Position numbers and translations under genes: made by a program. Shown here piece after piece: positions 4,299 through 44,245 of a stretch of DNA of 64,000 bases. Numbering within the stretch: the first letter of the stretch is position 1; each line of letters starts with the position of its first letter. Source of the DNA: Bythopirellula sp. (GTDB taxonomy: Bacteria; Planctomycetota; Planctomycetia; Pirellulales; Lacipirellulaceae); NCBI GenBank assembly GCA_034439695.1, contig JAWXAV010000047.1:248-64247 (forward strand). Reading direction: 5' to 3'. Under the pieces are notes generated by a model, which did no database searches, was not told the DNA's origin, and saw only the letters and a program-made list of their open reading frames with translations.

Positions 4299-4325
4299 GC
4301 GACTTTCAACGAGCAGGTTGTGAGA

Positions 4326-6107
4326 TCATTTTGTGGCCGGCGCGGCGAGACCATCGAGCCGAGGTTTGGCGAGCTGCTTCAAATCCTCGGCCAACTCAGA
4401 CGCGGAGCGCGGCACATCGGTTATCTCCCAGGGCAACACAACGGTAAACTCGCTCCCTTTGCCCAGTTCGCTCTCGACGGTGATCTCGCCCCCCAACAGT
4501 CGACACAACTCGCGGACGATCGACAACCCCAAACCGGTACCCGAATACTCTCGCGTCATCGCCGTACCACCGGACAGCACATTCGACCCTTGGCGAAACT
4601 TTTCAAAGATCACCCCCTGCTCATCCTCACTAATTCCCACGCCGGTATCAGCGATGCTGAGTCTGAGATCACCTCGACGGTCTCGTTGCACCTTGACCGT
4701 AATCCGTCCCCCATCAGGAGTGAACTTGATCGCGTTAGAAAGCAGATTGTTGAGAATCTGCTCCACCTTGCTGCGATCTTGACGAATCAGCGGGAGCGCC
4801 GGTTCGATTTCGCATTCGAGGTCAATATTCTTCTTTTCGCTCAATGGCCGAGCCATGTCGCACTGGGCCGACACAACCGAGCTAATGCTGAAATCGCTGA
4901 GTCGCACGTCCATTTTGCCGCTCTCGATTTTGGCCAAATCGAGAATGTCGTTGATCATTTCCAAGAGCTGCCGGCCCGAGCGCTGGATGTTGCTCGCGTA
5001 GCGGCGTTCCTTGTCTTCCAGTTTTTGCAGCGTTGCCAACAAGTCGCTGAAGCCGATGATGCTGTTGAGCGGCGTGCGCAGTTCGTGGCTCACCGTGGCC
5101 AAAAAGTCGCTCTTGATCTGGTTCATTTCAAACAGCCGCATGTTGGCCTGGGCCATTTCATCGACTTTTTGGTCGAGCTCGGTGTTGACTTCCTTAAGCT
5201 CATCCTGCTGGCGCAAAAGTTGCCGCAACATCCGGTTGAACGCCGCACCGAGTTCCTCAAATTCATCCCCTGTATGAATGACGGCTCGCTGCTCAATGTC
5301 GCCGCTGCGGATGGCGTTACTCACGTCACGCAAATGCCGCAGCGGCTTCACGATGATGTAGCGCACGATGGCGTAGAGCGCGACCATCGATAAGAAAACT
5401 GTGACCACCGCCGCCACAATCATCCAGGCAATGTTTCGTTGCTGGGCTGAACGAATCTCTTCGGCATCAGTTTCAACTCGGATTACCGCCAACAAATCGC
5501 CTACTTGCAGATCAGGCCAATAAACTGAAACGCCGGGGTTACTGTGGCACAAGATGCAACCCTGCTTGGCAAAGACGGGTTCGTAGTACTGCCAAGTCCA
5601 TTTCGACTCGCCCTGCTGTTGCTCTTTTTCTTCCTCTGTGAGATTGACCGCCGAAGCGAACTCGGTTTTGGGAACAACGCGCTGCTCCCATTGGGTTTCA
5701 ATCGCATTGATTTCGTCGTCGCTTCGCAGTGTCTTTCCTAGTTTCGTCCAGCGACCCATCAAATCCCATTCAAATTGCTCTTCGGGTCTTCCAACACGAT
5801 TTTCGTTTTCTGGTAAGAGCACCTGCCATTTGTAATCGCTACTGCGCAACATGTCGGCGATCTTGCGATCGACGGGTCGCAATTCAACATCGGGGTCAGA
5901 TTCCTTGAAATGAGCTTCCACCAAAGTCGTATTCGCCAAGGCCGCCCCTGTGAAGCGAGCCTGCTCTTCCACGATCTTGTTCGTCTGTAGGGCATACCAC
6001 CAGAAGCTCCCCGCGATCAGCGGCAACAGGCAGGCCCCAAACAGCAGCCGGCACTTGCGCTCCAAGCTGGTTTCGCCAATCGCTTTGGTCAGACCGCGAT
6101 AACTCAT
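4326..6107 (-). CDS. Membrane sensor histidine kinase: periplasmic CxxCH (DUF3365/Tll0287-like) domain, HAMP, HisKA, HATPase
   Basis: Two TM segments flank YYEPVFAKQGCILCH. HAMP (DEFEELGAAFNRM), H-box (VSHELRTPLNSI), N/G boxes (NLLSNAIKFT, DTGVGI, GTGLGL). Confidence 0.9.
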   Translation of the reverse strand: MSYRGLTKAIGETSLERKCRLLFGACLLPLIAGSFWWYALQTNKIVEEQARFTGAALANTTLVEAHFKESDPDVELRPVDRKIADMLRSSDYKWQVLLPENENRVGRPEEQFEWDLMGRWTKLGKTLRSDDEINAIETQWEQRVVPKTEFASAVNLTEEEKEQQQGESKWTWQYYEPVFAKQGCILCHSNPGVSVYWPDLQVGDLLAVIRVETDAEEIRSAQQRNIAWMIVAAVVTVFLSMVALYAIVRYIIVKPLRHLRDVSNAIRSGDIEQRAVIHTGDEFEELGAAFNRMLRQLLRQQDELKEVNTELDQKVDEMAQANMRLFEMNQIKSDFLATVSHELRTPLNSIIGFSDLLATLQKLEDKERRYASNIQRSGRQLLEMINDILDLAKIESGKMDVRLSDFSISSVVSAQCDMARPLSEKKNIDLECEIEPALPLIRQDRSKVEQILNNLLSNAIKFTPDGGRITVKVQRDRRGDLRLSIADTGVGISEDEQGVIFEKFRQGSNVLSGGTAMTREYSGTGLGLSIVRELCRLLGGEITVESELGKGSEFTVVLPWEITDVPRSASELAEDLKQLAKPRLDGLAAPATK

Positions 6108-28009: not shown

Positions 28010-28586
28010 CCCCCTCACGCATTCAGGAAGCGGCGCAGATATTTCTGCCGGAACTGCGTATCCGCCGCGGCGGATTCCGGCCTACGTTCTCAAATTGTCG
28101 CAATCGGCGGCCGACCTTTACCTTGAAATCTCGATTGTTATCTGCCACTCTTCAAGGTGATAGTTAGAGATGCTCCGCCGTTTACGCCATTTATCGCATC
28201 TTTATTCGACGAAACAAAATCCTGGTAACAATCTAGTATGCCCATTCGTTCTCATGACATTATTTAGCGAACTCTGCTAGGTCAGGATGAATCAGAATGG
28301 GCACAAACTGTTGTCGATTGCTCAGCCGCCTTTCCTCCCATGCTTCGACGTCGGAAACTCGGGCGTATCGAATGCGGCCGCGTTGCTCATAGGGTAGTTC
28401 GCCGGAGAGCATCGCGGCCAAGACCGTTTCGCGACGCATTCGTTGTTGCTTGCGGATGGCATCAACAGTCAACCAGCGAATCGGCTGAAGTGGATTGTTT
28501 AGCCGAGCCATGGTATTTCCTCTCCTCAAATAAGGCCACGAAACTTCACACAGTTTGTAGAGCGTAGTTCCCCCTCACGCATTCAG
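28010..28586. mobile_element. Putative minimal integrated islet bounded by a 17-bp direct repeat (att-like)
   Basis: CCCCCTCACGCATTCAG is identical at 28010-28026 and 28570-28586; the second copy contains the last codons and stop of the DUF3500 gene. Confidence 0.6.
28260..28511 (-). CDS. Excisionase-like / HTH_17-type small DNA-binding protein
   Basis: GAGGAGA RBS, ATG 28511; WLTVDAIRKQQRMRRETVLAAMLSGELPYEQRGRIRYARVSDVEAW follows the Xis/MerR-like LT...G.LP...G....DV..W pattern. Confidence 0.65.
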   Translation of the reverse strand: MARLNNPLQPIRWLTVDAIRKQQRMRRETVLAAMLSGELPYEQRGRIRYARVSDVEAWEERRLSNRQQFVPILIHPDLAEFAK

Positions 28587-29636
28587 CTTCACGCTCGCGC
28601 TATCCGACACGTTGACCCACACGTGTACATGGGGCGAACCGCGGAAGTGCCAGACGAATGACGGCCCTTCGAGCCGCCAGTTGTCCCACGTCTTGTCCTT
28701 GCCGATATCGCCCTGCTCGTAGAATGCCAAGTGGCAGGCATCAAGGCCCCCTTGCGCGTTGAGGGCGGCGATTGCTTCGTCGCGGTCGTTTTGCCGATAG
28801 GGCTCGACCAATTTTTTGAGCACTTCTTGCACTCGGGTCCGCTGATCGCTCGTGAGCTCGGTGAGGGGAATGCCCTGAAACTGGCCGCTCTCGCCTTGGA
28901 AACCAACTTTTTCTTCGCGTGGCATACCCCGCCTGACGAGAGCCAGTTGTTGCTGCTTGCCATCGAGGGCTTGGTACAGCTTGTTCGCCTCGACGGCTTG
29001 GGGCCAGAAGACATTCCCCGGATGGTGCGCTTCTTCATCAAAACCCTCGCCGGAGTGGCCGTAGAAAATCGGCCCGCCGAACGCGACGTGGTCCGTCGTG
29101 TTGCCGTCGCAGCGCACGGTCATGTGCCGGCCGGTCATCACGAATTCAAAATGCTCGCTTCCCGGCTCGCCAAAGATCGCGACGCTGTTCTGCTCGCCAA
29201 AGCCGCCGGAATCATCCGACAGTTGCTGGTCGATTTTTGCATGCCATTCGGGACTGTAAAGATTCTCAAACACCGCGCGAATGAGAGCGCGTTGGTCGCC
29301 GGTATAAAAATCGTCGTTCACATAGTAATCGGTGATGTCCCAATTGTTGGCAACCCGCGTGCGCAGCAGCCCGCGCTTGGCATCTTGGTGATCCCAGGCA
29401 AAGCAAATTTTCTCGCGCTGGCCGGGGGTGAGCGCTTCGTAGAGCAGCTTCACCAGCGATTCCGCCGACTGGATGGCAGGTAAGGCGGCTGTTTGCTCCG
29501 CCGCACGCAGCGAAAACGGTGTGCTCGCGACGGCCAAGCCCGAAGCCAAGAGCGACACGCCGGTCTGCTCCAAAAAATTCCGCCGATTGATGCTCGTCAA
29601 CGAAAAATCTTCGCAACAACGTCCCCAAGGATCCAT
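28575..29636 (-). CDS. Tat-exported DUF3500-family protein
   Basis: NRRNFL twin-arginine signal; LTPGQREK, GRHMTVRCD, WRLEGPSFVWHFRGSPHVH. Start may be TTG 29600. Confidence 0.75.
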   Translation of the reverse strand: MDPWGRCCEDFSLTSINRRNFLEQTGVSLLASGLAVASTPFSLRAAEQTAALPAIQSAESLVKLLYEALTPGQREKICFAWDHQDAKRGLLRTRVANNWDITDYYVNDDFYTGDQRALIRAVFENLYSPEWHAKIDQQLSDDSGGFGEQNSVAIFGEPGSEHFEFVMTGRHMTVRCDGNTTDHVAFGGPIFYGHSGEGFDEEAHHPGNVFWPQAVEANKLYQALDGKQQQLALVRRGMPREEKVGFQGESGQFQGIPLTELTSDQRTRVQEVLKKLVEPYRQNDRDEAIAALNAQGGLDACHLAFYEQGDIGKDKTWDNWRLEGPSFVWHFRGSPHVHVWVNVSDSASVKLNA

Positions 29637-38284: not shown

Positions 38285-38457
38285 AAACAGTCATTCTTCA
38301 TTTACTCGACACAGAAGCCCAAAAAATTTGACCTTGCCGAAAATGGCAAGGTAAAATTAAAAGGGTTGTGGTTCATCGGTCGGCTTCCTGCATTTTGCCA
38401 TGCGAGCCGACAGGCGTGCGACGCAACCGATCCCCTCAGCTTGCCTGGAGGTTGCCT

Positions 38458-39000
38458 ATGACTGCTGGTTCCCCCCGCCCTGGCCGCAGCGAAGCTCTGC
38501 ACCGGTTCTTCGCCGGCATCACCGAGTACACCTTCACCACGCGACTCGGCGTGGCCGACCCGCCGCTGGTGGATTACCTCTCCGCCCTCTTAACCCATTT
38601 CGTGCGCACCGACGCGATCTTCGGTCTCCGCACTCCCACCGGAGAACGCTTACTCGCCGTCACCGACATGCTCCAAGAAGCCCAGCACCGCCAAGGCCCG
38701 GCGCGGCGACGTGTCCACCGTCACATCGGCGATTTCACTTTATTCTGGCTCGGCGTGTATCCCGAGACCGCCGAGAGTCGTCGCAAGCAAACCAAAGACA
38801 GCCTGATCAACTACCACGACCAGGGCAAACGCAACTATCTGCTCGCCAGCCGCCTCCCCGCCGACGAAACGTCCGCCCCCGACGACGTGCTCGAACGCTT
38901 GAGCGATTGCTTCGAGTTATGCGTCTACGGCCTGGGCGAAGTCCGCCGCCAATGGGAAGACCGCGAAGGCGAAAGCGACACGCCGATTTTGTTGGGGTGA
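38458..39000 (+). CDS. Hypothetical helical protein
   Basis: GGAGG RBS, ATG 38458; HRHIGDFTLFWLGVYPE, GKRNY, FELCVYGL. Confidence 0.8.
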   Translation: MTAGSPRPGRSEALHRFFAGITEYTFTTRLGVADPPLVDYLSALLTHFVRTDAIFGLRTPTGERLLAVTDMLQEAQHRQGPARRRVHRHIGDFTLFWLGVYPETAESRRKQTKDSLINYHDQGKRNYLLASRLPADETSAPDDVLERLSDCFELCVYGLGEVRRQWEDREGESDTPILLG

Positions 39001-39009
39001 AAATCGCCA

Positions 39010-39035
39010 TTAGCCGGACTGCAACGCAGTCCGGG
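39010..39035. repeat. TTAG-led REP-like hairpin
   Basis: ttag ccggactgc aac gcagtccgg. Confidence 0.6.
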
Positions 39036-39073
39036 AGTTCTCATGGAGTTCCAAATCGCCTGACAAACAACTC

Positions 39074-39102
39074 TTGTTCGCAATTTGCGAACATGCTATA
39101 AT
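39074..39102 (+). promoter_or_regulatory. sigma70 promoter with perfect 9-bp inverted-repeat operator (higBA)
   Basis: TTGTTC-17 nt-TATAAT; TGTTCGCAA-T-TTGCGAACA at 39075-39093; ATG lies 7 nt after the -10. Confidence 0.75.
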
Positions 39103-39109
39103 TGTTTGT

Positions 39110-39418
39110 ATGAATGTGATTAGCAGGCGAGAGATCCGCGAGGCACAAGCGCGCCATGCGATTTGTCACAACTGGCTTGAGAGATGGTTAGATACTGCAT
39201 TGAAGGCGACCTGGTCGAGTTTGTGGGATGTTCGTAAGGCCTACCCCTCAGTCGATCAAGTTGGAGGGTGTTTAGTTTTCAATGCTACGGGCGCGCGACG
39301 CCTCATTGTTGGTGTTTATTATTCAAGGCCTGGCGTTGATGGTACCGGCACTCTCTATATCAAACACTTTCTGACTCACGCTGAATATGACCGCGGCAAT
39401 TGGAAAAAGGACTGCTAA
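39110..39418 (+). CDS. higB: HigB-family toxin
   Basis: MNVISRR, W.S..DVRKAYPSVDQVG, VFN, YIKHFLTHAEYDRG.W. Confidence 0.85.
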   Translation: MNVISRREIREAQARHAICHNWLERWLDTALKATWSSLWDVRKAYPSVDQVGGCLVFNATGARRLIVGVYYSRPGVDGTGTLYIKHFLTHAEYDRGNWKKDC

Positions 39419-39419
39419 G

Positions 39420-39818
39420 ATGGGAACAACTGCCTATGCCAACCTGCTCATGGAAGCTCAGCCGCAGATTATCCACGATGAGAGAACCCATAAACGGGCT
39501 CTTGGCTGGATCGATCAGTTAATGAAGATGCGCAAACTATCCACGGCGGAACAAACACTTCTGGAACTTTTGTCGAAGCTAGTCAACGACTACGAAGAAC
39601 AGATCTTTCCCACGCCAAATCTGCCGCCTCGCGAAATACTGCAACATCTCCTAGAGAATAGCGGCATGAGTCAAGCAGAATTCGCTCGCACGATTGGCCT
39701 CCCCCGCTCCACAGTCAGCGAAGTTCTCACAGGCAAGCGGGGTCTCAGTGTGGAAAACGCTTTTCGCTTGGCGGACTTTTTTCACGTTCAGCCAACGCTG
39801 TTTTTAGAACGTCGGTAA
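39420..39818 (+). CDS. higA: HigA-family antitoxin (XRE HTH)
   Basis: PQIIHDE, LSKLVNDYEEQ, SGMSQAEFARTIG..RSTVSEVLTGKR, LADFF. Start ATG 39420. Confidence 0.85.
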   Translation: MGTTAYANLLMEAQPQIIHDERTHKRALGWIDQLMKMRKLSTAEQTLLELLSKLVNDYEEQIFPTPNLPPREILQHLLENSGMSQAEFARTIGLPRSTVSEVLTGKRGLSVENAFRLADFFHVQPTLFLERR

Positions 39819-39880
39819 ACGATCTGAATTCCTCCGCGAACATCCGCCAAATCAGTGTTCATCCGCGTTCCATTCCGCCT

Positions 39881-39934
39881 TCACGTCACCAACCCCTTCG
39901 TGACCATCATAAACACATCTTCGAACGTTGGTTT
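39881..39934 (-). pseudogene. Displaced duplicate of the last ~17 codons of the ABC ATPase gene
   Basis: Encodes KPTFEDVFMMVTKGLVT* versus EPTLEDVFMMVTKGLVT* at 40779-40832; 21 bp identical at the stop end. Confidence 0.85.
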
Positions 39935-39978
39935 TATACCGGCGGAGCTCACTCTGCAAAACGCAGATCCATCTGGGG

Positions 39979-40719
39979 CTATTTCTGCAACGGCTCTTTC
40001 TTCAGCGATTCGCGAAATCTCTCGAATTGCTCCTTCGTACTTAGATTCTCGCCGGCGAAAGGAGTGGTGCGAAAATAGCTAACGGTCCACCACCATCGGT
40101 AATAAGGCATGACGCGAACTTCGGCGGCTTGTGCATCACCAATATACAGTGCGAATGCCTTGCCATTGTGTGCCGCCAGGATGGGCGTTGTCTCATCAGC
40201 GATGCGCCTCGGAAGGTGGCCTGGGTAGAAATTGCTTGGTTTCATTAAGTACGCGATCTTGTTTTCGGCCGCCTCGCGAGCTGTCCAACCATCTATGCGA
40301 TCGGCAACTTCGATTAAGTAAAAGACACTTAGCAGACTAACACAAAGCCCCATACCCCACGCGTTGATTCGCAGGTAACGGCCTGTCACTCGGGCAGTCG
40401 CTAGCCGAGCAAGAAGCATCGCCGAGACAACCATGGCGAACATTGCAGATGTCCAGTTTGCGAACGGTACATATTTTTCACCGACGCACAGCCACAAGAA
40501 AAGTGTCCAGATTATGCGGCCGCTGAGCCACAGTGCAAGAAATGTCACTGTCGGCAAGATGAGATACCATAAGAGTCGCGCTTGCTGACGCTCGCCTTGG
40601 CGAGACCAACCGCCGAAAATCAGATAGACCGATAGGGCCAAATACAGGCCTATCAGCCCATACAGAGGAATCGCCGTATTTTCGCTGATTGCGAGCAACA
40701 GTGATGGCATCTTCGTCAC
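39979..40719 (-). CDS. Hypothetical membrane protein (about 4 N-terminal TM), cargo between the duplicated gene ends
   Basis: 246-aa ORF, visibly AT-richer than the flanking ABC genes; no family recognised. Confidence 0.65.
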   Translation of the reverse strand: MTKMPSLLLAISENTAIPLYGLIGLYLALSVYLIFGGWSRQGERQQARLLWYLILPTVTFLALWLSGRIIWTLFLWLCVGEKYVPFANWTSAMFAMVVSAMLLARLATARVTGRYLRINAWGMGLCVSLLSVFYLIEVADRIDGWTAREAAENKIAYLMKPSNFYPGHLPRRIADETTPILAAHNGKAFALYIGDAQAAEVRVMPYYRWWWTVSYFRTTPFAGENLSTKEQFERFRESLKKEPLQK

Positions 40720-40778
40720 GATCCGCCATTAAAAAGTAAACCTGTTTCAAGCACAGGGCTCGAATGTCAGTCACAGCC

Positions 40779-41705
40779 TCACGTCACCAACCCCTTCGTC
40801 ACCATCATAAACACGTCCTCCAGCGTCGGCTCTTTTTCGGCGAAGGAAATCAGCCCGCAATCGGCGGCGGCCAACTGACGCATCAAGCGCTGCACGTCGG
40901 CGTCGGAGCCTTTCATTTCCACCGTGCAACTCCGTGTGTTCACTTCAATGTGCTTCACGTTGGGATCACTCTTGACAAGTCCGACTCCCGCGTCGGGATT
41001 CCCCGTGAAGCGGATTTCGATATGCCGATTGGTCGTGATCTTGCGATAGACTTTATCAATCGGACCGTGCAGCAACAGTTGCCCCCGCTCGATAATGCCG
41101 ATGCTCGTGCAGCAATCGGCCAGCTCCGTGAGAATATGACTGGAAATGAGAATCGTCTTGCCCATCTTGCGCAGTTCTTTGAGCAAAACCTTCACTTCCA
41201 ACCGCGCGCGGGGGTCGAGCCCACTGGCCGGTTCGTCGAGAATGAGTACCGGCGGATCGTGAACCAACGTTTTCGCGAGGCACAATCGCTGCTTCATGCC
41301 GCGGGACAAACCATTCACGTAATCATCTCGCTTGTGCGTGAGGTCCAACAATTCCAGTACGTCAGTGAGCACCTGCTTCCGCCGTGCGGCGGGCACCTGG
41401 TACGCCACGGCAAAAAAATCCAAGAACTCCCACACTTTCATGCCGTCGTACACGCCGAAATTGTCGGGCATGTAGCCGATACTCCGCCGGACGGCAATCG
41501 GATCGCGCGTGACGCTGTGTCCATTCACGAGCGCCTCGCCGTGCGTCGCCTTGAGCAGCGTGGCCAGAAAGCGAATCGTCGTGCTCTTGCCGGCCCCGTT
41601 GGGCCCGATAAAGCCAAACATCTCTCCCGCGGGAATCTTGAGATTCAAATTCTGCACGGCCACAAAGTCGCCATAGTGCTTGCCAAAGTTGGTAATTTCG
41701 ATCAT
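40779..41705 (-). CDS. ABC transporter ATP-binding protein (ABC-2/DrrA type)
   Basis: GPNGAGKST, LSRGMKQR, LILDEPASGLD, ILISSH. Confidence 0.93.
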   Translation of the reverse strand: MIEITNFGKHYGDFVAVQNLNLKIPAGEMFGFIGPNGAGKSTTIRFLATLLKATHGEALVNGHSVTRDPIAVRRSIGYMPDNFGVYDGMKVWEFLDFFAVAYQVPAARRKQVLTDVLELLDLTHKRDDYVNGLSRGMKQRLCLAKTLVHDPPVLILDEPASGLDPRARLEVKVLLKELRKMGKTILISSHILTELADCCTSIGIIERGQLLLHGPIDKVYRKITTNRHIEIRFTGNPDAGVGLVKSDPNVKHIEVNTRSCTVEMKGSDADVQRLMRQLAAADCGLISFAEKEPTLEDVFMMVTKGLVT

Positions 41706-44245
41706 GGCGACTCATCGGTTTCTGTTGAGGTCACAACGTCCGCCGGACTGTTCACATCCGGCTGCCGCGTGGCCAGCGGTCCATATTCTAAGTGCGCGAT
41801 GACCACCGTCACCCCCTTGCGCTGCGAAGCCTCGGGCAGAATCTCCATCCCCGGCACTGCTTCATCGATGACGCCCACCAACCGCGTTTCCTCGCGCTCT
41901 TTGGAAAGCGGGTCATGCTTGTTCTCGAACAGAAACGCCAGTTGCAGTAGCGGATCAACGCTCATCGTCGGCACCACCCGCACTTCCGCGGCCGCTTCCC
42001 GTTCCAAGGCGAATGGCAACTTTTTCGGCTCTAAAGCGAGCGGCTTCATCCCCAACACCACTGTCCGCCCCCCTTTAAGCTCGCCCAGCCAACATCCTTC
42101 GTAGCGCGTCTTTCCCGCGGCATCGAAAGTGCGCCGCACGACGGCCACATCCCGCAACGCTAGCTGCGACCGATTCTCCACCTGCTCAAGCCCTCGCGAC
42201 GAAGTTCCCAACCGCAGCGGCCCGTCGAGTTGCAAAATCTGCTCGGCATGAATCAATCGCGTGGCCGAGGAGGCCACCGTCAGTCCATCCAAGCGCGGAG
42301 CGCTGCTTTCGTCGAACACCACCGAAGAAAGCAAGTCCGTCGGATCGGAGTCATTCGCGGGGAACGGCAACACCAGCGCCGCCTGCTCGTCGGGGAATTC
42401 AATTTCATAGGTCGTCGAAAGCGAGGAATACATGGCCGTGAATCTTGTGAGCACGCCCCTGTCGTTGGCACCCTGCAATTCCAAAATCGCCACCTCGGTC
42501 TGCGCGCGGACGAAGCCGATGTCGAGCTGCGCCTGCTTCACAATCGCCCAGGTGCCAAGAACCGCCAGGAACGGCACGGCAATCCAAGCCCATTCGACGC
42601 GGTTGATCGTGTAAAACACGAGCCAATTCACCGGCACGAGCACGAGCAAATAAAACGCCAACGTCCCCAGCACAAACCCCGCTCCCGGCACCTGCACGCC
42701 CGCCGCCACCAGCAATAACTCCCGCGCCACTTGTGCGACCGGCGAAAACTCATCCCAGCCGGCAATCCCCCCGGGTCGATCCACGCTCAGTTCCGTCGGA
42801 TCTTCCGTGACCGGGAATGGCCCCGCTGGTTGGTTCAGCGCGATGGTCGTTTGCCGTGTATTGGCCTGCGCCTGGGCATCGCGCGCGAACAGCCGCAGCG
42901 GCGTGGTGAAGTGCGCATCAAGCCGCCGCTGGTTAAAATCAACCCAATCGACCTGCGTTGCCCCAAACAGACCTGCCGAGAAAATTCGCCGTGGCCGCTG
43001 CAACAGCCCACCGTTCAAGAAGCCATCGAAGCCGGGCCAATTGATGAAATCGCGTTCCGAAAGTTGCAGCGCCGAAACCGTGATCGCGCCGCGTCCCACG
43101 TTCCTGCTGCAAAACAAGGCCTCCGCGCCAGCCACGTCCACACTCCCCGCACGCAACTTGAGTGCGATTCCCGAAAGTGGCTGGCTCGGCTTGAGCGGCG
43201 CAATCGCCGTGCCACTTTCGCGGCGACCCCAATACGCCGACAGCGGCAGGAGATCCTCGGCGGTGAACTCGCGCGGCCCACCATCCTCGGCGGGCAAAAA
43301 CGGTTCGAGAAAACTTCCCTTGAGCGACGCCAGCGAATCAGGCCCATTCACAATCAGCCGCCCACCCCAATGGAGCCAATCCAACAGCGCCTGTTGCTGG
43401 GCCACCGAAAATCGCATTGGATCAACTTCATCCCAAATGATGTACGCCACGCTCGTCCAGGTGAACGGATTCTCGGGCAACGGAACCTCGGCCCCCACCT
43501 TCGCGAGCGTCACTTGATAATGCACCCGCGAGCTTTCCGCGAATTCTTTCTCCCACGGTGCCCGCACCGTGTTGGTTACTTTGAGAAACGCATATCTCTC
43601 CGGCTCCTTGGCGAGCACCACGATGTTGTACTGATAGGCGGGGATGCGCTCGAGCTTCGGCTGATAGAGAAAAACGTCCGCTCCCGAATCGCGATCCACC
43701 AACTGCGCCCGCAGCCGCGTCGCCTCGGTTCGTTGCGGCAAAAAAAGCTCCCCCTCGATCTCGCGCTCTTTCCCTTTGACAAGCGTCACGTCGCGACTCA
43801 CGCGCAATCCAAACCGGGAATGTTCGAGCGCCACCGCCTGGCGATTGTCGTCCACCAACTCGGCCGCGAAGCGGCCGATGAAATCGTTGAAGTTGGCCTG
43901 CATCGGCTGGTAGGTCGCGGTCCAATGCCCCGGCTTCAAAGCAAGCGTCGGGCCTTCGTCCGCAACGGCATCAACCGACTCTTCCCCAAAGCGCGGTCGG
44001 AGCGGCCCAATCTCCAGCGGCGGCTTCCGCTGTTCTGCTTCCTTTTGTTGTTCAGTCTTCTCGGCAGCGGACTGCTTGTCGGTTGATGCGTCAGCCGCTT
44101 CGGATGGCTCTTGAGTTTGAGCGAAGATACCCTGGGAACTTGCTAGCAAAACGCTAGTGAAAATGATCGTAACAATCCACAAGCTCGGCCAAAGAGGGAC
44201 GTGCTGGCAAGTTGCCGGTCGAGAGTGCTGTCGTTTGATCTGCAT
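41702..44245 (-). CDS. Large exported membrane-anchored protein with class-I GATase-like domain, coupled to the ABC ATPase
   Basis: Signal peptide; YIIWDEVDP...QQQALLDWLHWGGRLIV; GRGAITV; two TM helices near aa 520-570; ATGA overlap with the ATPase gene. Confidence 0.7.
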   Translation of the reverse strand: MQIKRQHSRPATCQHVPLWPSLWIVTIIFTSVLLASSQGIFAQTQEPSEAADASTDKQSAAEKTEQQKEAEQRKPPLEIGPLRPRFGEESVDAVADEGPTLALKPGHWTATYQPMQANFNDFIGRFAAELVDDNRQAVALEHSRFGLRVSRDVTLVKGKEREIEGELFLPQRTEATRLRAQLVDRDSGADVFLYQPKLERIPAYQYNIVVLAKEPERYAFLKVTNTVRAPWEKEFAESSRVHYQVTLAKVGAEVPLPENPFTWTSVAYIIWDEVDPMRFSVAQQQALLDWLHWGGRLIVNGPDSLASLKGSFLEPFLPAEDGGPREFTAEDLLPLSAYWGRRESGTAIAPLKPSQPLSGIALKLRAGSVDVAGAEALFCSRNVGRGAITVSALQLSERDFINWPGFDGFLNGGLLQRPRRIFSAGLFGATQVDWVDFNQRRLDAHFTTPLRLFARDAQAQANTRQTTIALNQPAGPFPVTEDPTELSVDRPGGIAGWDEFSPVAQVARELLLVAAGVQVPGAGFVLGTLAFYLLVLVPVNWLVFYTINRVEWAWIAVPFLAVLGTWAIVKQAQLDIGFVRAQTEVAILELQGANDRGVLTRFTAMYSSLSTTYEIEFPDEQAALVLPFPANDSDPTDLLSSVVFDESSAPRLDGLTVASSATRLIHAEQILQLDGPLRLGTSSRGLEQVENRSQLALRDVAVVRRTFDAAGKTRYEGCWLGELKGGRTVVLGMKPLALEPKKLPFALEREAAAEVRVVPTMSVDPLLQLAFLFENKHDPLSKEREETRLVGVIDEAVPGMEILPEASQRKGVTVVIAHLEYGPLATRQPDVNSPADVVTSTETDESP

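Follow-up and report, generated by a model that had tools for sequence, protein, structure and literature searches.

A duplicated ABC ATPase gene tail in a Bythopirellula genome, best read as a footprint of recombinase-free gene acquisition

The ABC ATPase gene, its trapped tail and the gene between them

The window, a 64,000-nt stretch of contig JAWXAV010000047.1 from a Bythopirellula metagenome-assembled genome (GCA_034439695.1), carries on its minus strand an intact 308-aa ABC transporter ATPase gene (40779..41705), assigned by Pfam matches to ABC_tran (E=3.4e-31) and DrrA1-3_C (E=3e-9). An orthologue is present in 40 of 41 relatives, and the gene length of 927 nt is identical at all 20 genus loci compared. 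Its upstream partner, a conserved 847-aa gene without a Pfam match (41702..44245, minus strand), overlaps the ABC start codon and holds this position in 18 of the 20 relatives compared. On the plus strand, convergent with the ABC gene, lies a toxin-antitoxin (TA) pair (39074..39818) of two overlapping ORFs, HigB (39074-39418; HigB_toxin PF09907, E=3e-17) and HigA (39387-39818; HTH_3 PF01381, E=6e-12), which together place a HigB/RelE-fold toxin beside an HTH-Xre antitoxin, as in type II TA modules. The GC content of the pair is 0.48-0.52. Farther out on the plus strand is p210, a conserved 210-aa gene (38368..39000) that converges on the ABC gene in insert-free relatives.

The 3' end of the ABC gene is present twice. 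A repeat search of the window returned a direct repeat of 67 nt (39881-39947 against 40779-40845) with 82% identity and a spacing of 898 nt, and self-BLAST of the whole 4.77-Mb genome gave the pair an E value of 1e-9. The functional copy, F (40779..40845, minus strand), comprises the last 21 codons of the gene and its TGA stop; its final part (40779-40832) closes the ABC ORF with ...EPTLEDVFMMVTKGLVT, and its C-terminal peptide, EKEPTLEDVFMMVTKGLVT, agrees with the genus consensus. The remnant copy, R (39881..39947, minus strand), ends in ...SAGIKPTFEDVFMMVTKGLVT and a TGA of its own and has no gene body; 39881-39934 encodes KPTFEDVFMMVTKGLVT before the stop, no ORF lies upstream of it, and 62 nt separate its stop codon from the end of HigA. 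The homology between F and R stops exactly at the final base of the stop codon. Only one mismatch falls within the 36 nt that adjoin the stop (97% identity), of which the nearest 21 nt form an exact block, and direct reading of the last 18 codons gives 8 differences in 54 nt, 6 of them at third codon positions. R shows decay (E->K, L->F), and comparison with the remnant of a diverged, species-level relative, L047 (NCBI GCA_021733565.1; KPTLKDVF...), indicates non-synonymous decay since insertion. Protein-level HSPs of 51-64 aa seemed to carry the remnant on into the 3' end of the gene beside it; this was rejected, as the last 17-23 residues give the score. The structure is an ABC gene-tail repeat with an intact gene and a dead remnant.

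Between the two copies stands a single ORF of at least 100 aa (39979..40719, minus strand), here called the cargo. It is predicted from the ORF list and from hydropathy to be a membrane protein of 246 aa, or of 243 aa with the ATG at 40710 as start codon, with four hydrophobic segments that correspond to four predicted transmembrane helices and a conserved C-terminal domain of ~100 aa. The protein has no match in Pfam or PADLOC. Fifteen metagenomic homologues share 42-83% identity with it, and an alignment of 12 homologue sequences has 26 invariant columns; an AlphaFold2 model built with 12 homologues is of moderate quality (pLDDT 66) and had no PDB match below E=0.1 in Foldseek. An order-wide search found distant homologues only, at no more than 31% identity. 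The cargo has a GC content of 0.52, against 0.58-0.64 in the flanks, and is foreign by composition. No recombinase or integrase was found, by ORFs and Pfam, between the copies or across 38368-44245.

The inserted unit begins on the left with a 59-nt spacer after the ABC stop codon (40720..40778, minus strand), in which a consensus scan marks a terminator-like hairpin (40741-40757, minus strand). On the right, 31 nt (39948..39978, minus strand) lead from the cargo stop codon to the remnant; F/R homology is lost here, and this stretch, which the window locus and L047 have in common, is the presumed illegitimate junction. No source for it emerged among the hot-spot intergenic regions of relatives, where local alignment scored no higher than with shuffled sequences (z<2). 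The first-pass annotation had described this arrangement correctly in outline: two diverged ABC 3' ends flanking an insert, differences mostly at third codon positions, and one membrane-protein ORF, alone between the copies, as the content of the insert without a recombinase.

An assembly artefact or strain-mixture chimera is conceivable in a genome of 204 contigs at about 95% completeness, and its probability is close to negligible. Both copies recur at precisely this 898-nt spacing in eight contigs of independent JGI, Logan and ENA assemblies, with 0 mismatches over 1301 nt in seven of them and 34 in the eighth, and the diverged relative has the same structure, so we regard this explanation as refuted at the level of independent assemblies. 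The samples with exactly this locus are JGI 3300020192, 3300020201 and 3300020203, SRR6448205, SRR6448206, SRR6448211 and SRR6448214, and ENA ERZ505514.

A hot spot between the ABC gene and p210

In six genus members (L032, L036, L038, L040, L034 and L029) the ABC stop codon lies just 24-200 nt from the p210 stop codon and the ABC tail is single; these insert-free loci are all from relatives beyond strain level. In five genus members HigBA follows directly behind the ABC stop codon with gaps of 17-75 nt, and the window order of R, HigBA and p210 is colinear with the ABC end, HigBA and p210 of these five. HigBA is the older occupant of the site. Other genus members have MNT/HepT, PIN, a DUF2442 pair or unknown ORFs in the interval, and G007 has a 2.7-kb stack of four TA-like modules. 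Further ABC-tail remnants lie behind MNT/HepT-like cargo in G007 and in G023; the latter remnant has 36 aa, and all 4 of its differences, within the last 27 codons, are synonymous. Remnant length at the site varies between species from 17 to 36 codons. The ABC/p210 interval is thus a genus hot spot for varied small modules, with the ABC gene as host and anchor and p210 as far flank, and the variable cargo that had been anticipated at the ABC site is seen across the genus. Most of the cassettes nearby are addiction or defence modules, of a kind not easily lost.

The cargo itself also occurs elsewhere. Metagenomic homologues at 50-63% identity sit behind citrate synthase, DUF3303 and other genes, and no remnant of the upstream gene's tail was seen beside them in L046, L048, L049 or L051 (in L050 no gene is called upstream). 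Duplication of the target therefore does not accompany the cargo in every case.

L047 has the layout of the window locus, with a spacing of 897 nt, and its cassette and remnant precede a downstream module unlike that of the window. The insert is thus neither strictly recent nor private. Between the two genomes the ABC genes are 82.7% identical and the 847-aa genes 66%, whereas the cargo and the non-coding spacer reach 87-90%, the spacer alone 89.7%. Direct reading also shows R to be a mosaic: its stop-proximal part resembles F of its own genome and its distal part R of the other genome.

These features would be expected from a RecA-driven, Campbell-type integration, in which a circle made up of the cargo and a mimic of the gene tail up to its stop codon (H), formed by recombination between F and R in a donor, enters by a single crossover in the gene tail and regenerates F-cargo-R in front of any downstream module. 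Such a circle would account for the same cargo, the same cargo-R junction and the 897/898-nt unit before different modules, for a cassette more alike than the genes beside it, and for the mosaic R as the result of crossover or conversion inside H; selection on an element-borne tail, as in tRNA-targeting islands, would also produce a homology that ends at the stop codon. We nevertheless judge it unlikely. It leaves the origin of the first F-cargo-R unexplained, 50-110 nt at 80-90% identity are a poor RecA substrate, a non-replicating 0.9-kb circle has no evident route between cells, and the 12 rluD codons in the remnant of the M32 peptidase locus, described below, point to an illegitimate junction and not to a clean H segment.

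The first-pass annotation had predicted that the 39881 copy would be closer to orthologues. The reverse was found: against the nearest relatives, which are merely 75-88% identical, F has 3-4 and R 6-15 mismatches in 54 nt. The functional copy is also nearer to relatives at the uvrC locus. At the M32 locus, however, the remnant is nearer to G011, the nearest sampled relative (10 against 14 mismatches in 75 nt), and both copies are about equally distant from G023 and G024. The polarity tests thus disagree between M32 on one side and uvrC and ABC on the other, and at the ABC locus the decay of R and the divergence of the relatives limit what the test can say about polarity. At this divergence, sliding identity against the relatives showed no clear donor tract in the ABC, M32 or uvrC genes and says little either way.

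Sister loci and gene tails across the genome

Two further loci show related arrangements. Between the M32 peptidase gene and rluD, G011 is empty (42 nt to rluD) and G024 has a cassette and no remnant; G000 has a cassette 84% identical to that of G024, then a chimeric remnant, then a different island. In the chimera, rluD codons 1-12 are fused through CCGA with the final 27 codons of an M32 allele, which makes it a microhomology junction of two allelic versions of the hot spot. At uvrC, cassettes are stacked in the order cassette 1, R, cassette 2, and in G007 cassette 2 lies directly behind uvrC.

A stop-anchored scan of the genome returned 18 matches scoring 9-13 of 14, against 1 in five permutations, and yielded about 12 clear gene-tail remnants, mostly around TA pairs, in units of 0.6-2.2 kb with repeats of 32 to 108 nt. 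The proposal of a recurrent route at protein-gene ends is supported by these cases. In 10 of 14 pairs the end of the homology falls between -4 and +3 nt from the stop codon, and an eleventh, C93, has kept matching stop codons at the homologous position; R has kept an in-frame stop in 13 of the 14. Within three pairs the stop codon differs, even where 82 nt are 100% identical. The cargo begins right at the stop codon even where the tails are near-identical (C45a, C61b, C172), and right junctions lie merely 2-40 nt beyond the cargo stop codon. Pooled differences between F and R fall 20/15/78 on the three codon positions, with pS 0.365, pN 0.052 and pN/pS 0.14, an estimate that carries some ascertainment bias, as detection requires an identity of at least ~78%. 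The non-synonymous share of differences is 0.31, against ~0.58 expected had R merely decayed following duplication in situ (binomial P=6e-6). The suggestion that both tails have been under protein-level selection holds up in these pooled data.

The same numbers weigh on the possibility of an in-situ insertion with long target duplication (ILTD), by which a staggered break or replication-based repair would have copied ~67 nt of the resident gene tail and captured foreign DNA, leaving two initially identical copies to diverge. Repeats of more than 30 bp, the lack of a mobility gene, the low GC of the cargo and the single repeat copy in insert-free relatives fit the published criteria (PMC2853133), some pairs are 99-100% identical (C45a, C61a), and R has decayed. 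However, the synonymous bias speaks against decay of a dead copy, otherwise identical copies differ in their stop codons, random staggered cuts would place the end of homology at the stop codon far less often than is seen, and the M32 junction links two different genes, an outcome beyond the reach of simple target duplication. We regard this route as distinctly unlikely. Synonymous-biased divergence, differing stop codons and the chimeric M32 junction argue for two alleles over one duplicated target, an argument to which the ABC locus taken singly contributes only its 8 differences in 54 nt.

Integrative elements target the 3' ends of tRNA and protein genes and supply a replacement end, so that the element is flanked by attL and attR; CIMEs are their integrase-less derivatives. 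The present units resemble such elements in that the repeat is a gene 3' end, the gene stays intact and homology stops at the gene end; they differ in having no integrase, no common core, variable repeat length and unit sizes of 0.6-2.2 kb. The units could accordingly be read as CIME-like, mobilized by a trans-acting integrase, or as the stump of an island whose integrase was deleted, with the repeats as attL/attR and the tail supplied by the element. Elements at gene 3' ends are well known (see PMC5812530, PMC4057263), and the exact 21-nt block adjoining the ABC stop codon would suit an attachment site. A second islet at 28010 in the same window, with exact 17-nt repeats and an 89-aa ORF that the first-pass annotation called Xis-like, also speaks for this possibility. 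We nonetheless consider it quite improbable. No integrase was found in or beside any of the ~12 units, as far as 38368-44245 and the listed ORFs of the 10 other units examined show, and reading of the repeat sequences showed no shared core or motif among 12 different genes, each of which would need its own specificity; in addition, repeat lengths vary across the genome, and remnants at the ABC site differ in length between species. The 28010 islet had been grouped with the ABC-tail insert as the same kind of event, a grouping that its footprint does not bear out, for its repeats run past the stop codon, and the two should not be pooled without further work.

The cassettes have no motif in common: blastn-short gave no cross-matches among 11 cassettes. 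No cargo has a second copy in the genome. The units also do not look like integron cassettes, which end in an attC-type imperfect palindrome and belong to an IntI/attI platform: no end motif is common to them and the boundary is the host gene's own tail. We found no paper on TA cassettes with gene-tail duplications as a class. Two candidate analogues were set aside: the Microcystis TA genes "fenced by direct repeats" have intergenic repeats of 152 bp and not gene tails (PMC7935541), and the B. thailandensis megacircle is transposase-dependent (PMC6350997).

Proposed mechanism and relation to known systems

The explanation we favour, and hold to be probable if narrowly, is that homology-facilitated illegitimate recombination (HFIR) added a relative's cassette to the resident one at the ABC/p210 hot spot. 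DNA from a relative with another version of the interval would have met the resident chromosome and recombined by two crossovers: a homologous one, with a conserved flanking gene as its anchor, and an illegitimate one, where a short microhomology happened to lie among the final ~25 codons of one ABC allele. The incoming membrane-protein gene, with its own spacer and terminator, would then have been placed before HigBA without replacing it, and the tail of the second ABC allele would have been caught between the modules as a dead remnant, which later exchange and gene conversion would have used as homology. Such use of the remnant would account for the cassette and junction that L047 shares with the window locus and for the different module behind its remnant. 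We infer that the ABC locus arose like its M32 sister locus; the mechanism is taken over from the sister loci because the left side of the ABC junction is untraceable.

HFIR is the best reading of the hot spot itself, the further remnants, the colinearity with relatives, the boundary at the stop codon, the synonymous bias, the M32 junction, the stacking at uvrC and the lack of dedicated machinery. Against it stand the lack of a clear donor tract in the three genes and the conflict among the polarity tests, and the same cargo-remnant junction in the window and in L047 needs a second event, or transfer of cassette and remnant as a unit. Furthermore, HFIR does not by itself explain two regularities, the start of the cargo at the stop codon and the right junctions so close behind the cargo stop. 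The first-pass annotation had left the mechanism between a trans-acting integrase and homology-facilitated recombination; the M32 microhomology junction favours the latter, and the former is not favoured, with neither a motif nor an integrase found.

A broader proposal is possible but on balance doubtful, namely that trapped tails act as portable homology and turn the ends of housekeeping genes into integron-like accretion sites that are integrase-free and run by RecA. This would explain the stop-exact boundaries, the same cassette before different modules, and the stacks of TA and defence genes. If true, ordinary recombination and conversion would be able to add, swap or excise the next allele at each remnant, a general and so far unformalised route for TA and small defence genes.

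The ABC-tail insert is related to two known phenomena. The first is ILTD of restriction-modification units (Nobusato et al. 2000, Gene 259:99; Furuta, Abe and Kobayashi 2010, PMC2853133), which likewise involves small addiction-type or foreign units without a mobility gene, inserts below genome GC, and repeats of more than 30 bp with a single occurrence in insert-free genomes, some of the published repeats overlapping the 3' end of a neighbouring gene. In contrast, the cargo here is a membrane protein, with TA pairs elsewhere in the genome, and not restriction-modification genes, and the repeats, being gene tails with their end at the stop codon and mostly synonymous differences, look like two alleles and not one duplicated target. 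The mechanism of ILTD is left open in the published work as well.

The second is C-terminal displacement and the growth of orphan arrays in Rhs, CdiA and T6SS effector loci, attributed to HFIR (Jackson et al. 2009; Kirchberger et al. 2017, PMC5361080). There the incoming module uses a conserved gene as its one homologous anchor, the former 3' end is retained farther downstream together with its companion gene, and arrays grow without an integrase; here, too, the anchor gene's 3' end is kept behind the incoming module (39881-39947, with its own stop). The displaced pieces of Rhs, CdiA and T6SS loci are functional, variable toxin tips whose selective logic is the retention of immunity, whereas the hosts here are housekeeping genes, the two alleles hardly differ in their tails, and what is trapped is no more than 17-36 dead codons.

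HFIR has been shown experimentally in Acinetobacter, S. pneumoniae, P. stutzeri and E. coli (de Vries and Wackernagel 2002; Prudhomme et al. 2002; Meier and Wackernagel 2003; PMC3240628), and together with trapped, displaced 3' ends it has precedent (PMC5361080, PMC3240628). It combines one-sided homology with an illegitimate join at a microhomology of a few bases and needs no dedicated enzymes, a description that the CCGA junction at M32 fits. The published cases differ in being laboratory transformation or conjugation with selectable markers. To our knowledge, natural HFIR products at many housekeeping gene ends of a Planctomycete have not been catalogued.

How modules of one or two genes, such as TA pairs, move between chromosomes without a recombinase is a long-standing gap. 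The ABC locus by itself is an ordinary instance of the process; the genome gives about a dozen dated footprints of it, and three regularities open to testing: homology up to the stop codon, mostly synonymous divergence, and one 4-nt microhomology junction for which relatives show the empty and the single-cassette states. If our reading is right, conserved gene ends are anchors at which diverged lineages stack accessory genes instead of replacing them, which bears on how defence and addiction islands grow. In sum, alongside ILTD and C-terminal displacement, the scar behind the ABC gene is best read as a footprint of recombinase-free gene acquisition.

A duplicated gene end and its cargo

The final 67 nt (40779-40845) of an ABC ATPase gene (40779-41705, minus strand; 308 aa; Pfam ABC_tran, E=3.4e-31, and DrrA1-3_C) are repeated at 39881-39947, 898 nt away and with 82% identity. 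This second copy, the remnant, ends in KPTFEDVFMMVTKGLVT and a stop in the frame of the ABC gene, with the gene body absent. The functional and remnant copies are homologous up to and including the stop codon and no further; of the eight differences between their final 18 codons, six are at third positions. Between the copies lie a 59-nt spacer carrying a terminator-like hairpin, one ORF encoding a 246-aa cargo with four hydrophobic segments, and 31 nt that could be traced to no source. GC drops from about 0.60-0.64 to 0.48-0.53 across 39000-40850, a stretch spanning both the cargo ORF and the adjoining HigB/HigA toxin-antitoxin pair (HigBA).

The duplication is not an assembly artefact, a possibility raised in the first-pass annotation. 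The exact cargo protein is carried by 19 public contigs, and all eight contigs read, from separate JGI, Logan, and ENA assemblies, hold both copies exactly 898 nt apart, seven with no mismatches over 1301 nt and the remaining one as a 97.4% variant. A species-level relative (L047; NCBI GCA_021733565.1) likewise has the ABC gene followed by the cargo and then the remnant, at a spacing of 897 nt. Decay of the remnant consists of one E-to-K change common to the window and L047, an L-to-F change in the window only, and an E-to-K change at another residue in L047 only. A 97.4%-identical strain variant (L115, ENA ERZ505514 contig) has cassette and remnant as in the window; its upstream gene calls differ, with an ABC fragment of 161 aa and, before it, a 259-aa gene in antisense orientation; the contig may be rearranged or chimeric.

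The cargo is a member of a small conserved family, with 15 homologues in 5.8 billion proteins and 26 invariant columns across the 12 aligned. It is predicted to have four TM helices, with an alpha/beta domain at the C terminus, and no match was found among families, defence systems, or folds. More distant homologues adjoin other upstream genes, and no upstream-gene tail remnant was found beside them in checkable contigs. One of these homologues is in a Lacipirellula MAG, consistent with the first-pass annotation of the genome as that of a Planctomycete. On a metagenome contig with a 59%-identical homologue (L046), a 67-nt, 97%-identical repeat (4317-4383 and 5376-5442) is an internal segment of the membrane-protein gene copied just after the neighbouring SnoaL gene, a scar similar to that of the window but taken from a gene middle instead of a gene end.

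The interval between the ABC gene and p210, a conserved 210-aa gene, is a hot spot. The two genes are convergent in 20 genus members, and the intervening content is variable. Six species have a gap of 24-200 nt; five carry HigBA, two have single unknown ORFs, two have other genes (2.6-5 kb), one has a DUF2442 pair, and genome G007 has a 2.7-kb stack of four toxin-antitoxin-like modules. The remnant, HigBA, and p210 of the window are colinear with the ABC end, HigBA, and p210 of five relatives. ABC-tail remnants also lie behind MNT/HepT-like pairs in G007 (20 codons) and in the related genome G023 (36 codons, with 4/4 differences in the last 27 synonymous). In a further relative (L035, genome G002), the ABC stop is followed at once by a miniature tandem copy (15 nt) of the gene tail, ending in another stop codon (...GGGTTGGTGACGTGA GGATTGGTGACGTAG, or GLVT and stop twice); the same process may have left this as a minimal scar. 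Across the genus, the last 66 nt of the ABC orthologues (L021-L040; window 40779-40844) share 77-95% identity with the window, which for most species clearly exceeds their own whole-gene identity (74-88%); several reach 92-95% in the tail versus about 78% over the whole gene. Conservation is lowest in the approximately 100 nt preceding this tail (61-81%). Codon constraints or repeated exchange at the tail may underlie this pattern.

Gene-tail duplications across the genome

The weight of the finding lies in genome-wide regularities and a resolved junction, not in the single ABC locus. Self-BLAST combined with a stop-anchored peptide scan of the window's assembly (4.77 Mb, 204 contigs) identified about 12 gene-tail duplications. 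In the peptide scan, 18 hits had 9-13 matches in 14, and five permutations gave 1. Host genes include those for uvrC, GAPDH, an M32 carboxypeptidase, an aminotransferase, and an oligoendopeptidase, among others. The cargos measure 0.6-2.2 kb, have GC below that of their flanks, and run in the direction of the host gene in 9 of 11 units. Five contain a Pfam-recognised toxin (PIN twice, PemK/MazF, HepT with MNT, and DUF4258); the rest consist of unknown ORFs.

In 10 of 14 pairs, the homology boundary falls between -4 and +3 nt relative to the stop codon, and in an eleventh (C93) the stop codons still match where the copies align. The remnant preserves an in-frame stop codon in 13/14 pairs; the stop codons are unlike in three (TAA/TAG, TAG/TGA, and TGA/TAG), one of which is identical over 82 nt. 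Pooled divergence between functional and remnant copies was pS 0.365 and pN 0.052, with some ascertainment bias remaining, and differences at codon positions 1, 2, and 3 numbered 20, 15, and 78. In-situ long target duplication is a less likely origin: a dead copy decaying after such an event is expected to show a non-synonymous share of about 0.58, whereas the nine nucleotide-search pairs gave 0.31 (P=6e-6, again with some ascertainment bias). The synonymous bias argues that the remnants diverged mostly while serving as functional gene ends in another lineage and have decayed little since then.

Two sister loci, M32 and uvrC, were compared across relatives. Behind the M32 peptidase gene, relative G011 has 42 nt and then an rluD-like gene, and relative G024 has a two-gene cassette and then an intact rluD, with the remnant absent. 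The window's assembly has G024's cassette (84% identical over 717 nt), a chimeric ORF, and a different island. This 38-codon ORF (MPLTTLTAQVTERITGKPLSHGPLIEQLTAKYGEIYGL and stop; contig C85, 2141-2232, outside the window) fuses rluD codons 1-12 to the closing 27 codons of an M32 allele with its own TAG, the junction being the microhomology CCGA, and sits between the two-gene cassette and an island starting with an approximately 600-aa P-loop ATPase; the full rluD is on a separate contig, behind a PIN module. The chimera is an illegitimate join of two allelic versions of one hot spot. At uvrC, an insert of about 2.1 kb (contig C99, 31375-33520) separates the gene from conserved downstream DNA that in G023 lies within 70 nt of uvrC. 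It comprises an MNT/HepT cassette, a uvrC-tail remnant, approximately 550 nt, and a second cassette, which in G007 is directly behind uvrC (87% identity). The stacking is as at M32 (cassette 1, remnant, cassette 2).

Origin of the footprint

Homology-facilitated illegitimate recombination (HFIR) is the best fit to the tail-duplication footprint. One homologous anchor in the conserved flank would combine with one microhomology join, so that the incoming allele would be added, not exchanged, and the gene tail trapped at the join. HFIR also accounts for the foreign-allele signature, the variable remnant lengths, and the hot spots. It likewise explains why no recombinase is present, why no shared motif was found among the cassettes, and why the genome has no second copies of the cargos. 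A trans-acting integrase is less likely.

Some features are not fully covered by HFIR, namely, the exact coincidence of boundary and stop codon even where the two copies are nearly identical, the tight right-hand junctions, and the likeness of the window and L047 in cargo, junction, and unit length while the modules behind the remnant differ. In these two genomes, the stop-proximal part of each remnant resembles the functional copy of its own genome, and spacer plus cargo are 87-90% identical versus 82.7% for the ABC gene. This comparison suggests a later exchange or conversion for which the remnant supplied homology, or Campbell-type re-entry of an excised circle, the latter being the main rival to HFIR.

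The remnant had at first been predicted to be the resident, orthologue-like copy. The ABC locus speaks against this, with 3-4 mismatches per 54 nt to the nearest relatives for the functional copy and 6-15 for the remnant; uvrC also favours the functional copy, and M32 leans toward the remnant (10 versus 14 mismatches of 75 to G011, the nearest sampled relative), all in comparisons with relatives 75-88% identical, too distant to settle which copy was resident. With relatives at that identity, no donor tract is visible.

Other repeats and known systems

REP-like palindromes, intragenic repeats, and tandem paralogues in the repeat list were excluded. Many short direct repeats appear in the self-BLAST list because the REP-like family (GTCATTCCCGCGCAGGCGGGAA...TTCCCGCCTGCGCGGGAATGAC) is dispersed across the assembly (e.g., C67 12767-12834, C165 5367-5443, and C201 12019-12090; window 10804, 32457, and 45100). 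Elsewhere in the window (28010-28586), direct repeats of 17 nt without mismatch (CCCCCTCACGCATTCAG), starting at 28010 and 28570, enclose a single 89-aa ORF (28260-28529, minus strand; putatively Xis-like in the first-pass annotation). The 28570 repeat takes in the final 3 codons and the stop of a 353-aa gene (28575-29636, minus strand) plus 5 nt of downstream sequence. Because they are short, exact, and extend past the stop codon, these repeats resemble an att core more closely than they do the 67-nt gene-tail scar. On contig C190, a duplicated tRNA 3' half, tRNA-His-like by eye (781-831 and 1539-1589, 758 nt apart), encloses an 80-aa and 110-aa HTH pair of toxin-antitoxin-like size without an integrase; within the first 3.5 kb of this contig, no intact tRNA was called by ARAGORN.

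The window footprint can be compared with two known systems. It agrees with the published description of "insertion with long target duplication" for restriction-modification units (PMC2853133), except that the two repeats of the window look like two alleles. In its logic it corresponds to the C-terminal displacement of Rhs and T6SS loci, a process that has been attributed to HFIR (PMC5361080).
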